The position numbers were made by a program, and so were the translations under genes. A stretch of 64,000 bases of DNA, from the IMG/VR virus record IMGVR_UViG_3300021256_000064, positions 1 to 64,000 of that record. The stretch is one strand, 5' to 3'. This DNA is from a virus. Positions 18,641 through 21,522 of this stretch are shown piece by piece (the first letter of the stretch is position 1; each line of letters starts with the position of its first letter). The notes beneath the pieces are model-generated. The model was not told the origin of the DNA, made no database searches, and was given only the letters and a program-made list of their open reading frames with translations.

Positions 18641-19162
18641 TTATTTATGATTATAAATATCTTCAATTACATCTTCAAAAAGAACTGGTTTACAATCATG
18701 TGCATCACAGTTGACATTATACATGAAAGGATGGTCACAAAAGGCATTTGGTGAATGAGTATGACCATGTATAGAATATACTTTTACAGGGTCATCATAA
18801 TTATCAACTAGAGTTGGATAATGAGTAAGTAAAAAAGTTTTTTTACCTTTTTTAAGTCTATATCCAAAATTAATTTCATCAAAAAGTTCTTTAAATGCGG
18901 CAATACGCGTGCTTGTGTCATGATTTCCAATTGCTAGTTTAATTTTACCATTAAGTCTTTTTACAAGGGGGATACCCGCATTAAGCTCACCCATAATAAC
19001 ATCACCAAGATGATATATAACATCGTTTGGCTGAACAACATCGTTCCAATTTTTAATAATAGCTTCATTCATTTCTTCTATTGAATTAAAGCCGCGAGCT
19101 TTCCAAATAAAATCTTTATTATGATTAAAATGAGTATCTGAAATAAGCCAGATATTTGACAT
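18641..19162 (-). CDS. metallophosphoesterase (calcineurin-like phosphoesterase)
   Basis: LISDTHFNHN...YHLGDVIMG...GNHD...HGHTH metal-binding motifs. Confidence 0.7.
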   Translation of the reverse strand: MSNIWLISDTHFNHNKDFIWKARGFNSIEEMNEAIIKNWNDVVQPNDVIYHLGDVIMGELNAGIPLVKRLNGKIKLAIGNHDTSTRIAAFKELFDEINFGYRLKKGKKTFLLTHYPTLVDNYDDPVKVYSIHGHTHSPNAFCDHPFMYNVNCDAHDCKPVLFEDVIEDIYNHK

Positions 19163-19662
19163 TATAAAATCACTCCTTTATAAGTTATCTCATCATTTAT
19201 GCTATTGTATTTAAAGATTCGATAGAATCCTTCATTTAATGAAGGCTCTTCAAAGCTATTATACATATTAACAATAGATTCTTTAGGAACATAACTGCGA
19301 GTTCCTTTTCTTTGTTCATTTCTTTTTAAACAAGTTTCGAGACTTTCATCTATCCAAATTAAATTAATATGACTACAATTGTTTGTAATAATATGGTCAA
19401 GAAGCCATTTTCTGGATTTTTTAGTAAGAGAAGTCTGGTCTACAAAAACAGTATGTCCAGATTTTAATTCTTTATTAATTTTATTCCAGAGAGTCTGCGT
19501 AACTTCTTTTTCTTTTGAAAAATAAGGTTCATTTGGTTTAACAAGAGAAAATCTAATTTTATCGCGGGAAATAACCACACCTTTATTTGATTTTACTTTA
19601 TTTTTAAGAAAAGTTGATTTGCCTGCACCAGGGACGCCGCACATTATATATAAATCACTCAT
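19162..19662 (-). CDS. P-loop kinase, polynucleotide-kinase-like (AAA_33-type)
   Basis: YIMCGVPGAGKSTF Walker A. Roughly 166 aa. Adjacent to the phosphoesterase and near the RNA ligase. Confidence 0.55.
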   Translation of the reverse strand: MSDLYIMCGVPGAGKSTFLKNKVKSNKGVVISRDKIRFSLVKPNEPYFSKEKEVTQTLWNKINKELKSGHTVFVDQTSLTKKSRKWLLDHIITNNCSHINLIWIDESLETCLKRNEQRKGTRSYVPKESIVNMYNSFEEPSLNEGFYRIFKYNSINDEITYKGVIL

Positions 19663-19946
19663 TATATAACACCTGCTTTCTTTAAATTTCCTCTAAAAAT
19701 TCGATAAGGTTCTTTTCTATTCCCTTCTGAATCAAAATTATTATATTTCATTTCAAGTTTAAAATCTTCATAAGTATAATCATCATAAATAGGACGAATT
19801 TCGACATGATTTTTTTCAGCACCACAATAAATGCAATATAATTTTTTTAAATGTCCAGATTTTCTAAATTTACTATTTTTTCTAGGAATAGATATTCCTT
19901 TTTTACCACAGCAAGTACAATACATTTCTGAAATTTGTGTTGTCAA
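19662..19946 (-). CDS. zinc-ribbon hypothetical protein (94 aa)
   Basis: CTCCGKKG...CIYCGAEK. Confidence 0.4.
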   Translation of the reverse strand: MTTQISEMYCTCCGKKGISIPRKNSKFRKSGHLKKLYCIYCGAEKNHVEIRPIYDDYTYEDFKLEMKYNNFDSEGNRKEPYRIFRGNLKKAGVI

Positions 19947-19960
19947 ATGAGAGCCTCCTT

Positions 19961-20197
19961 TTATTTTTCTATTACATTAATAACAATCATTGGGCGGATT
20001 ACATTATTTTTATTTTCGTAAGTGCAAATATAGATAGGCTCTTCTGTACTATCTTCCATTCTCCCTATTTGAAAATCAACAATAGTCCAAGGAATGTCAA
20101 AAGCAGCACCTTCAAAGAGAGGTATTTCATTATCTTGTCCCCAAATTTTTACATCTACTACCAAATCAATTTTTTCAAGCCATTCTCTGAGTGTCAT
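19961..20197 (-). CDS. small hypothetical protein (about 78 aa)
   Basis: Likely start MTLREWLEKIDLVV with RBS AAGGATGG. The 122-aa ORF in the track is an upstream extension. Confidence 0.3.
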   Translation of the reverse strand: MTLREWLEKIDLVVDVKIWGQDNEIPLFEGAAFDIPWTIVDFQIGRMEDSTEEPIYICTYENKNNVIRPMIVINVIEK

Positions 20198-20240
20198 AAT
20201 TTTCCATCCTTTCTTTATTTTCATTATATATATTATAACA

Positions 20241-20283
20241 AAAAATAATAAAAAAAACAAGGTGAGATTTTTTATCTCACCTT
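20241..20283 (-). terminator. rho-independent terminator after the RNA ligase gene
   Basis: Hairpin AAGGTGAGATTTTTTATCTCACCTT plus a minus-strand U-run. Confidence 0.5.
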
Positions 20284-20289
20284 TAAATT

Positions 20290-21522
20290 TTACTGATGAT
20301 ATTTCATAAGATATGTTGGAGAAACACATTTAAAAGAACGAGAACCATCAGTGGAACGGAATACAATTCCTTCTCTAATTTCTCCATCAATAACAGAAGT
20401 TTCACTATCTACGAAATTACGAAGTTCATCAAGAGTGTCTGGAAGCGTATAAGATTCAGCTACAATAGGAACACAAGGAATACCTTTTTCCTTCTCAAGA
20501 ACATCTTTCATAACAAGTGAATTTTCTCTTCCATTTTTAGAAGAAATAAGATTAAAAGCCATAAAATTATGTTCTTTCATATGGTAATCACGTTTCTGGA
20601 TTCCAGCTCCATAAGTTTCACCTTGAATCGTAATCCATTCACAATCTTTATATTTTGTTTCAAGAAGATATTTCATCTTATTGTAAATATCATACTTCTC
20701 AGCCATTTCAATATAAACATTTGTTTCATAGAAACAATTTTTATCAGGCTTATCAAAACATACGTTGCGGGAACAAATATAAAATTCATCTTTTTTAAAG
20801 AATCCTTTTCCGCGCTTAAGCGTAAAAGTTGTACTAGTTCCATCAATTTTTTCAGTAGCAATCCATTGAGATTTATCATTAAACAGATATGGAAGATTTT
20901 CAATTCTTTCCTCATCTGTCTTTTTTACCCATGCGGGCCATCCTGTTTTATCTTTCTTACGACCAAAGAAGATAAAAAGAAGCTTTCTTCCCCATTCTTT
21001 CTTCATAAGCCATCTGAAAGGCTGATGAGAAAACAGTTTACCGTTACGCTGTGCCATTTTTTTATATTTATCAACAGAGTTTGCTTTGCGGGCATTATCT
21101 TCTGGAACAGCATATGTCACATTAAGCTGCTTTGTGAGGAAACGAGATTCATTTTCAGCATTATGTTCCGCTCCGCCAGGTTCATGAATAGAATATCCAT
21201 AGTTATGTTTTTCAATAGTCCATCCAAAATTAGCGGCAGACATTAGGAGTCCCTGAGAAATGGATTTACACATTTTCTGTGTTTTAATCTTATAATGTTT
21301 CTTAGCAAGAAACTCCATATTAGTAAATGGCTCTACTTCAGGGAGCTGAGAATCAATTTCAAAATAAATTGCAGGGTCGCCCGCATGGAACTCGCCTTTT
21401 CCAACTACAATAGTCCATCCGCCTACATGAGCAAGCTCTACTCTATCATAGCCTTTAATTGGAGTTATAGCATCAACAGTAACTACATAAGCAAGTTCTC
21501 TTTCATTGTTTTTATTAAGCAT
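20290..21522 (-). CDS. ATP-dependent RNA ligase (Rnl-like nucleotidyltransferase)
   Basis: 410-aa intact ORF. Motif I WIATEKIDGTSTTF (KxDG). N-terminal DRVELAHVGGWTIVV. Sits with the kinase and phosphoesterase genes. Confidence 0.55.
   Translation of the reverse strand: MLNKNNERELAYVVTVDAITPIKGYDRVELAHVGGWTIVVGKGEFHAGDPAIYFEIDSQLPEVEPFTNMEFLAKKHYKIKTQKMCKSISQGLLMSAANFGWTIEKHNYGYSIHEPGGAEHNAENESRFLTKQLNVTYAVPEDNARKANSVDKYKKMAQRNGKLFSHQPFRWLMKKEWGRKLLFIFFGRKKDKTGWPAWVKKTDEERIENLPYLFNDKSQWIATEKIDGTSTTFTLKRGKGFFKKDEFYICSRNVCFDKPDKNCFYETNVYIEMAEKYDIYNKMKYLLETKYKDCEWITIQGETYGAGIQKRDYHMKEHNFMAFNLISSKNGRENSLVMKDVLEKEKGIPCVPIVAESYTLPDTLDELRNFVDSETSVIDGEIREGIVFRSTDGSRSFKCVSPTYLMKYHQ

Follow-up and report, generated by a model that had tools for sequence, protein, structure and literature searches.

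We found that a stretch of viral DNA of 64,000 nucleotides (the window; positions 1 to 64,000 of IMG/VR virus record IMGVR_UViG_3300021256_000064) carries at 18641-21522, on its minus strand, genes for a predicted RNA ligase, a predicted polynucleotide kinase and a minimal metallophosphoesterase (MPE), which we interpret, with moderate confidence, as a split RNA repair cassette of the heal-and-seal kind, belonging to a large gut/rumen phage that recodes TAG, and as a variant of the logic of T4 Pnkp/Rnl1 and of bacterial Pnkp. This interpretation is carried by the families of the three proteins, their intact catalytic residues, the linkage of their genes in relatives and the non-orthologous displacement of single components. 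An initial annotation of the window had compared the genes to the T4 Pnk and Rnl repair logic, and the comparison gains support from family profiles, conserved synteny and the displacement of the MPE (MPE1) by a kinase-fused HD domain. The window is phage DNA with a GC content of about 30%; its genes include those for DnaB, for a DNA ligase of the NAD-dependent kind, for GyrA and GyrB, for RNase H, and for holin and tail proteins, as well as a tRNA array.

Organization of the cassette

In the direction of transcription, the ligase gene is followed by a hairpin, a 78-amino-acid (aa) open reading frame (ORF), the genes for a Zn-ribbon protein, the kinase and MPE1, a second hairpin and the holin gene. 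The features of the cassette are as follows.

20290-21522, minus strand: predicted Rnl5-family ATP-dependent RNA ligase of 410 aa, in which an OB domain at the N-terminus precedes a nucleotidyltransferase (NTase) domain (PF21189, PF09414)
20259-20283, minus strand: terminator-like hairpin (10-bp stem and T-run) just 3' of the ligase stop codon
19961-20197, minus strand: 78-aa ORF (a 122-aa ORF call trimmed, by reading of the sequence, to the ATG that follows a ribosome-binding site, start 20197)
19662-19946, minus strand: 94-aa Zn-ribbon protein, CxxC...CxxC (phrog_1257, 1.6e-12)
19162-19662, minus strand: stand-alone P-loop protein resembling 5'-OH polynucleotide kinases, 166 aa (AAA_33, phrog_505)
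18641-19162, minus strand: minimal dinuclear metallophosphoesterase MPE1, 173 aa (Metallophos_2, phrog_547)
18566-18599, minus strand: terminator-like hairpin (15-bp stem and T-run) closing the healing sub-operon, upstream of the holin gene

All three enzyme genes of the initial annotation proved to be real ORFs, but the direct adjacency of ligase and kinase that it described did not hold, as the first hairpin and the 78-aa and Zn-ribbon ORFs intervene. TAATG stop/start overlaps were present at both the Zn-ribbon/kinase and the kinase/MPE1 junctions, indicating that these three genes form a tight sub-operon. Homologs of the 78-aa ORF, with 43-84% identity, occupied the same position in six related loci. 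Family and phage searches gave no informative match for this ORF or for the 71- and 50-aa ORFs upstream of the ligase gene, nor any informative homology for the Zn-ribbon protein beyond phrog_1257.

The RNA ligase

Pfam searches located the PHA02142 OB-fold (PF21189) at residues 10-94 of the ligase (6.6e-19) and RNA_ligase (PF09414) at residues 219-400, and phrog_968, annotated as an RNA ligase, matched at 4e-61. The best solved relative was NgrRnl of Naegleria gruberi (5cot), both domains of which aligned in a single-sequence search (3e-24), with residues 8-99 of the ligase falling on NgrRnl 5-102. A profile built from 11 diverse homologs matched NgrRnl at 1.2e-50, as against 5e-5 for T4 Rnl2, 1e-3 for an ATP-dependent DNA ligase and 4e-3 for Rnl3. 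The top NCBIfam model was TIGR02306 (RNA_lig_DRB0094, the DraRnl family; 4e-31), at 108 bits, which is under its 151-bit equivalog cutoff. Among the assignments raised in the initial annotation (Rnl1, Rnl2 or DNA ligase), none fits: the 410-aa protein groups with the Rnl5 RNA ligases and away from DNA ligases, and is closer to Rnl5 than to other ligase families. Phage homologs of this family have been noted earlier (PMC4408790).

NgrRnl is the structural prototype of Rnl5, in which the catalytic and ATP-contacting residues have been defined (PMC7261155). Specifically, residues R8, T202, D203, R206, K225 and D227 of the phage ligase correspond to NgrRnl Arg4, Thr145, Asp146, Arg149, Lys170 and Asp172, and R252, E302, F323, E384 and K398 to Arg190, Glu227, Phe248, Glu312 and Lys326, respectively. 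These 11 residues were invariant in 54 homologs with identities down to 41%, except that R8 fell in a gap in two of the 54. The KxDG motif that had been proposed from inspection is K225-I-D-G; covalent nucleotidyltransferase motifs I, III, IIIa, IV and V, together with the equivalents of Arg149 and Arg190, are all present. As in Rnl5 enzymes, there is no C-terminal domain, with motif V at K398 and the end of the protein at residue 410. The phage ligase is about 70 aa longer than NgrRnl by way of the linker that joins its two domains (residues 100-194), so that of the two OB contacts to the ATP gamma-phosphate, NgrRnl Arg4 is aligned with R8 and Lys121 falls inside the unaligned, longer linker. 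Elsewhere (8013-9977), the phage encodes a dedicated NAD-dependent DNA ligase of the LigA type.

The kinase and MPE1

The kinase matched AAA_33 (3.6e-21) and phrog_505, annotated as a polynucleotide kinase (1e-25). With a profile built from 14 sequences, the order of solved matches was the kinase domain of CthPnkp (4.8e-24), Pnkp1 (5e-20), PSTK (1.6e-19), T4 Pnk (7e-15) and mammalian PNKP (6e-13), whereas nucleoside and nucleotide kinases scored 1e-4 or weaker. The protein thus groups with polynucleotide and tRNA kinases and not, as the initial annotation had allowed for, with unrelated nucleoside or nucleotide kinases. Its P-loop, GxxGxGK(S/T), reads GVPGAGKST and contains K15 and S16, which align to Lys21 and Ser22 of CthPnk, and D34 and R37 align to the acceptor-site residues Asp38 and Arg41; all four CthPnk residues have been shown to be essential, the Asp being the general base and the Arg its partner (PMC3902929). 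In 49 homologs, K15, S16, D34, R37 and R118 were invariant. R118 is one of three lid arginines (R114, R118 and R122) in the segment RNEQRKGTR, predicted to touch the gamma-phosphate of the NTP, of which R114 was kept in 43 of the 49. We regard the 166-aa protein as polynucleotide-kinase-like, with a predicted activity on RNA or DNA 5'-OH ends.

MPE1 matched Metallophos_2 (2e-9) and phrog_547, annotated as a phosphoesterase (1e-45), and contained the full set of dinuclear MPE motifs (D9xH11, G53D54, G79NHD82, H114 and G133HxH136), which were conserved across its homologs. Its AlphaFold2 model had a predicted local distance difference test (pLDDT) score of 94.6. By both fold and profile the best match was Aquifex aq_1665 (1xm7; 5e-16), with GpdQ, YfcE, Mre11 and LpxH far behind. 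MPE1 is therefore a genuine MPE of the uncharacterized aq_1665-like branch. Its coupling to the kinase, together with the displacement of MPE by HD described below, suggests a role in healing 2',3'-cyclic or 3'-phosphate ends.

Linkage and displacement of components in relatives

When IMG/VR was searched with the ligase, 55 loci with 41-90% identity were obtained; counts were made on the 48 of them that extended at least 3 kb downstream. An independent scan of GTDB genomes gave 37 loci, of which 32 had at least 3 kb downstream and were counted. The kinase gene lay downstream of the ligase gene on the same strand in 45/48 IMG/VR loci and 16/32 loci from metagenome-assembled genomes (MAGs), or 61 of the 80, and MPE1 lay downstream in 35/48 and 16/32, respectively (51/80). 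Linkage of ligase, kinase and MPE1 is thus frequent, not universal, and the genes occur together far more often than chance would allow. Most relatives retained the order ligase, Zn-ribbon, kinase, MPE1, at ligase identities down to 41%, with a conserved Zn-ribbon ORF between ligase and kinase in 30 of the 48 IMG/VR loci. All 37 GTDB loci were in gut/rumen MAGs binned as Clostridia, Bacilli or Lachnospiraceae; many lay on contigs of 130-150 kb and were probably phages. The GTDB scan yielded MAG contigs only, with no chromosomal example and no firm host, and a megablast search of the island that holds these genes against GenBank phages gave no match.

Ten IMG/VR loci that had the kinase but no MPE1 formed the deepest clade. 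In one of these, L045, the gene order was ligase, RlaP, kinase-HD fusion, Thg1, a further MPE and a protein resembling RecJ, and the HD domain fused to the kinase in this clade is a non-orthologous replacement of MPE1 within the same arrangement. In addition, the 462-kb uncultured phage L059 (LR756500.1) has an RNA_ligase gene adjoining an HD-kinase fusion. T5-like Vibrio phages (Demerecviridae: JSF10 and Thalassa) carry genes annotated as RNA ligase, 'ATPase' and 'phosphoesterase' in that order; the latter two are homologous to the kinase and MPE1 of the window (25-27% identity, a single high-scoring segment pair spanning both), the JSF10 ligase is of the Rnl1 type (PF09511), and a NinI/lambda-like phosphatase gene lies directly upstream of the RNA ligase gene. 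This recurrence of ligase, Pnk-type kinase and phosphoesterase slots, filled by different families, is the strongest evidence that the three genes constitute a functional heal-and-seal unit.

The Thg1-like gene of L045 (13197-14024; family of tRNA-His guanylyltransferases and 3'-5' polymerases, 1e-29) has counterparts accompanying ligase, kinase and MPE genes in many relatives, including many loci with a Major Vault Protein (MVP) gene (L062-L115); the window itself has no Thg1.

The variable island upstream of the ligase gene

Upstream of the ligase gene, on the same strand, lie the 71-aa ORF, an MVP gene, the 50-aa ORF, which encodes a membrane protein, and genes for RlaP, a flotillin-like SPFH protein and a second MPE (MPE2). 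The larger genes are as follows.

21862-24363, minus strand: full-length MVP homolog of 833 aa, immediately upstream of the ligase unit (MVP_shoulder 9e-24, Vault_3 2e-7)
24582-25397, minus strand: RlaP-family Pol-beta nucleotidyltransferase, 271 aa (PF10127 1.4e-5, phrog_388 4e-19)
25489-26964, minus strand: SPFH/flotillin-like protein, 491 aa, with a long coiled-coil tail (Band_7 3.6e-23, Flot, NCBIfam FloT 5.9e-72)
27111-27869, minus strand: second metallophosphoesterase MPE2, 252 aa, lambda-phosphatase/ApaH-like branch (Metallophos 5.8e-15)

The gene at 24582-25397, which had been described only as a minimal NTase near the trio, was found to belong to the RlaP family. Its PF10127 score was 25.3 bits against a cutoff of 23, and the GS...DxD motif was seen as 'YGSQNY...SDVDV'. 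RlaP adds one or two nucleoside monophosphates to damaged RNA 3'-OH ends (PMC12776372). Its gene lies 3 kb from the ligase gene in the window and directly between the ligase and kinase genes in L045. In L001, the closest relative (90% ligase identity), an unrelated 140-aa ORF (6192-6614) stands in place of RlaP, suggesting that accessory genes of the island turn over quickly. Among 33 loci with at least 8 kb of upstream sequence, MPE2 was found in 10, MVP and RlaP in 8 each and SPFH in 2. The top PDB match of MPE2 was lambda phosphatase (1g5b, 3.6e-7), and the NCBIfam assignment was ApaH/PrpA-like. Family searches found no methyltransferase and no Hen1 among the island ORFs, and no tRNA-like or other structured RNA was detected beside the flotillin-like gene.

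The 833-aa protein is a full-length MVP homolog, with vault repeats, an SPFH-like shoulder and a C-terminal cap-helix region, its residues 230-370 and 459-775 being collinear with rat MVP (4hl8) 293-419 and 459-805 (9.5e-14). IMG/VR contained about 110 relatives of this protein in phages, and the GenBank phage matches were to only three uncultured huge phages. Within the gut/rumen phage group, MVP usually shares the island with the repair genes. A general linkage of MVP to RNA ligases was rejected, as no strong linkage was seen beyond this group: of about 40 MVP loci from more distant sources, only two had an RNA ligase nearby, L059 (RNA_ligase and HD-kinase) and L111 (RtcB). Since just these two have a ligase nearby, we regard a tie of MVP to RNA repair as no more than suggestive. 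In L059 (9514-21456), the genes on either side of MVP encode a PARP catalytic-domain protein, an R2K ATP-grasp protein, an AAA ATPase, the RNA_ligase, the HD-kinase fusion and a Macro-domain protein, the PARP beside MVP recalling the vault protein PARP4. In L111, a 209-kb contig, an RtcB ligase gene immediately follows MVP (9971-13823); RtcB was confined to this one of the distant loci, and the neighbors of MVP in L109 were unrelated.

MVP and the flotillin-like SPFH proteins belong to cage-forming families. The repair enzymes might be part of a vault-like RNA-handling system of the phage, in which MVP and the flotillin-like protein would scaffold or enclose enzymes that protect or repair tRNAs, a Ro-like chaperone, RlaP and the cassette, although we regard this as speculative and quite improbable. 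Our literature search found no paper that ties together MVP, phages and RNA ligases. If such a system existed, its importance would be greatest in a phage that relies on tRNAs of its own, presumably an amber suppressor among them, to express its late genes, and it would give the MVP family a concrete role in RNA repair or quality control, bearing on the function of eukaryotic vaults (MVP, the TROVE-domain protein TEP1, PARP4 and vault RNA).

TAG recoding, the tRNA array and the Ro-like gene

Reading through TAG raised the summed length of long frames in the window from 10,667 to 19,966 codons, nearly double. The recoded regions (15237-18224, minus strand; 28050-41989, plus strand; 45907-46848, plus strand; and 49494-58042, minus strand) contain structural and lysis genes, and the readthrough frames are of 232-3030 codons with 3-64 in-frame TAGs each, the longer ones having 700 to 3,000 codons and 12-64 TAGs. 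ORF calls made with genetic code 11 in these regions are therefore wrong, because readthrough merges the fragmented ORFs. The replication genes, the repair and MVP island genes and the Ro-like gene all end in TAA and have no in-frame TAG; the cassette, free of TAG, is therefore translatable under the standard code, before any switch to TAG reading, and its gene calls are unaffected. TAG recoding is already known in gut phages (10.1101/2021.08.26.457843; PMC9523058), and the cassette genes go unmentioned in the phAss-1 paper, which deals with TAG-recoding phages of about 136 kb.

The right end of the window holds the following two features.

60397-64000, minus strand: tRNA array of at least 14 genes, ending at the window edge (ARAGORN and Rfam)
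58784-60328, minus strand: Ro/TROVE- and vWA-like protein beside the tRNA array (Pfam DUF2828/DUF7788)

None of the tRNAs of the window encodes a 3' CCA (13 called by ARAGORN, 60397-63397). Rfam also matched a tRNA-like sequence of 88 nt (62074-62161; 36 bits) that was not in the ARAGORN output, and a tRNA-Leu(taa) is split by the window edge at 64000. In the closest relative (L180, contig IMGVR_UViG_3300021400_001206), the array goes on to include tRNA-Leu(caa), Thr and Met genes and one for an amber-suppressor tRNA(CUA) (L180 454-527), suggesting that the window phage's own suppressor probably lies just beyond the edge.

The gene called Ro-like in the initial annotation encodes a DUF2828/DUF7788 protein that may have the helical-repeat TROVE ring and vWA domain of Ro60/Rsr. 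The AlphaFold2 model was of moderate confidence (pLDDT 68), and its top three Foldseek matches were Rsr (2nvo) and Ro60 (1yvr and 1yvp), at 1e-5 to 1e-4 and with template modelling scores of 0.36-0.49 over the full length, but no PDB sequence match was found for the DUF2828 protein. The Ro-like gene was within 10 kb of the ligase gene in six related loci. Within the island and around the Ro-like gene, Rfam searches at the gathering threshold and at E<=1 gave no match to a structured RNA, a Y RNA or a ribozyme; a YrlA match of 23 bits, the only Rfam match other than tRNAs, was taken as chance.

Two further observations concern genes outside the repair and tRNA regions. A Hint/intein-type domain (Intein_splicing 4.5e-12, PT-HINT, Vint) was found at 36108-36881 on the plus strand, inside the TAG-readthrough frame of 28050-37142, in a protein that looks like a giant tail or tape-measure protein. 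At 47163-48962 on the minus strand, a 599-aa protein has a C-terminal GDSL lipase/acylhydrolase domain and is possibly a tail-associated or lysis esterase.

Proposed mechanism and alternative explanations

From the chemistry of the families, we infer the substrate of each enzyme (that of MPE1 especially), the RNA target and an anti-defense purpose. At a broken RNA, the kinase would convert the 5'-OH to a 5'-PO4, and MPE1, coupled to it, would open and remove a cyclic or 3'-phosphate to leave a 3'-OH, possibly with the help of MPE2. RlaP could restore trimmed 3'-end nucleotides prior to sealing. The Rnl5 ligase would then join the 3'-OH and 5'-PO4 ends by way of ligase-AMP and AppRNA; the joining would probably take place in a duplex-like setting that keeps the ends together, for example a tRNA stem-loop. 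In this way the phage would likely preserve the function of tRNAs or other RNAs of translation, its own or those of the host, in the face of host ribonuclease defenses, for which the anticodon nucleases suggested in the initial annotation are candidates.

Several points weigh against this interpretation. A terminator-like hairpin (20259-20283) stands between the ligase gene and the kinase sub-operon, and no kinase was found downstream of the ligase in 16/32 MAG and 3/48 IMG/VR loci. The best solved match of the kinase in a single-sequence search was PSTK (6.6e-10), ahead of the CthPnkp kinase domain, Pnkp1 and T4 Pnk. Aq_1665, the sole close solved relative of MPE1, has no known function, and MPE1 is outside the lambda-phosphatase branch that CthPnkp uses and for which 2',3'-cyclic phosphodiesterase activity is documented (PMC2190708); MPE2, 8 kb upstream of the kinase-coupled MPE1, is a member of that branch. 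Finally, characterized Rnl5 enzymes seal duplex nicks with an RNA 3'-OH strand and their physiological role has been called uncharted, and knockout of DraRnl leads to radiation sensitivity and delayed genome reassembly, which points to repair of DNA or hybrids (PMC5397189, PMC4408790).

These last results bear on the possibility that, while the phage replicates or recombines, the trio mends nicked DNA or RNA-DNA hybrids, with the kinase and phosphoesterase cleaning 5'-OH/3'-phosphate DNA ends in the manner of mammalian PNKP, which matches the kinase profile, and Rnl5 sealing nicks with a short RNA patch on the 3'-OH side. Rnl5 needs RNA only at the 3'-OH side and accepts DNA as the 5'-PO4 and template strands, in keeping with the slowed genome reassembly of the irradiated DraRnl knockout (PMC5397189, PMC4408790), and RNase H, gyrase, LigA and DnaB are encoded only a few kb from the cassette. 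Nevertheless, we consider this decidedly unlikely, as the phage already has a dedicated DNA ligase, the island partners are directed at RNA (RlaP and the Ro-like protein, with Thg1 in relatives), and other phages pair the same kinase and MPE with a ligase of the Rnl1 type, the tRNA-repair type of T4. A mere neighborhood of unrelated genes in a hypervariable accessory island, co-occurring through shared ancestry only, with a kinase for a small molecule or protein and MPE1 as a nucleotidase or phosphodiesterase of nucleotide metabolism, would agree with the solitary occurrence of MPE1 homologs in many phages, the lack of a known MPE1 substrate and the different island content of close relatives such as L001, which lacks RlaP. 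It is very improbable in view of a linkage that holds down to 27-41% identity and recurs in unrelated phage groups with other ligase families and with HD for MPE1, of the stop/start overlaps that couple Zn-ribbon, kinase and MPE1, and of the invariant polynucleotide-acceptor Asp and Arg of the kinase.

The cassette might also mature or quality-control the phage's own tRNAs rather than repair nuclease damage. The tRNA 3' ends produced by HDV-like theta ribozymes bear a 2',3'-cyclic phosphate, so that a phosphoesterase would be needed before CCA addition, and the kinase and ligase would handle other products. An ORF with the annotation 'RNA ligase, DRB0094 family' is present in 54.5% of theta-ribozyme phage genomes, a 140-fold enrichment (Kienbeck et al. 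2024, PMC10879173). The window phage depends on its large tRNA array and, to judge from its closest relative, presumably on an amber suppressor for reading TAG in late genes. It recodes TAG, the tRNA(CUA) of that relative lies just past the window edge, the tRNAs of the window have no encoded CCA, and Thg1, RlaP and the Ro-like protein co-occur in relatives. However, a scan for HDV-like structural motifs, the relaxed form of which recovered the published drz-Mtgn-1, the one control on which it was validated, found no candidate at the 14 tRNAs of the window, nor at any of 104 tRNAs from nine related loci, where the region behind the suppressor tRNA was covered as well, and its matches elsewhere were at the level of shuffled sequence; Rfam likewise gave no ribozyme. 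Moreover, 3'-end maturation does not require a ligase, and the kinase and MPE pair is also present in T5-like Vibrio phages, for which no recoding is known. This explanation thus has no direct support in our analysis, and we consider it unlikely. Repair of broken RNA by a split heal-and-seal cassette is the reading that we retain.

On that reading, gut/rumen phages would have a different and widespread solution to RNA repair, combining Rnl5, a stand-alone Pnk and a minimal metallophosphoesterase, or HD in place of the MPE. To our knowledge, phage RNA repair is understood in detail for T4 alone. Rnl5 ligases, the enrichment of which in recoding phages was earlier interpreted as reflecting possible aminoacylation, gain a consistent genomic partnership with end-healing enzymes, which makes a role in the repair of RNA breaks directly testable. 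The aq_1665-like MPE family becomes a source of candidate RNA-end phosphoesterases, and the MVP, flotillin and Ro-like neighbors offer a speculative but testable link of vault-family proteins to RNA repair.

Comparison with known systems

The system of T4, in which Pnkp and Rnl1 counter the anticodon nuclease PrrC, is also encoded by a phage and carries out the three steps predicted here, namely 5'-phosphorylation, removal of the 2',3'-cyclic or 3'-phosphate and ATP-dependent sealing. The acceptor motif of T4 Pnk, Asp35/Arg38, corresponds to D34/R37 of the window kinase, and T4 also encodes an RlaP, NrdC.11 (PMC12776372). However, the T4 kinase is fused to a DxDxT acylphosphatase, whereas the window phage has a separate metallophosphoesterase, and Rnl1 is specialized for tRNA anticodon loops, whereas the window ligase, with its N-terminal OB domain, is predicted to be an Rnl5 enzyme, a family with nick-sealing biochemistry. 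Furthermore, the target and trigger are known for T4, whereas the window cassette has a proposed target.

Among bacterial systems, CthPnkp of Clostridium thermocellum and Pnkp1 of Capnocytophaga are the nearest relatives of the kinase by profile. CthPnkp, in which healing by a dinuclear MPE is established (PMC2190708), has its kinase and metallophosphoesterase domains in the same order as the genes of the window. It is, however, a single polypeptide of kinase, MPE and Rnl4-type ligase working with the Hen1 methyltransferase, whereas the window encodes three proteins with a ligase of the Rnl5 type, and its MPE is lambda-phosphatase-like, as is MPE2 of the window, whereas the kinase-coupled MPE1 is aq_1665-like. 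NgrRnl and DraRnl share their domain architecture and catalytic residues with the phage ligase, but the operon partner of DraRnl (Deinococcus radiodurans DR_B0094) is a DEDDh-exonuclease-like gene rather than a kinase and phosphoesterase.

In the Vibrio phages JSF10 and Thalassa, the genes are only generically annotated, and our literature search found no functional study of them. Their trio has the gene order of the window, and the lambda/NinI-like phosphatase upstream parallels MPE2, but there is no Zn-ribbon ORF and the ligase is of the Rnl1 type (JSF10). HD-Pnk end-healing enzymes, such as that of Runella slithyformis, have a parallel in the kinase-HD fusion beside an RNA ligase in L045 and in the HD-kinase of L059, whereas the window cassette has a separate MPE in the position that HD occupies in those phages.

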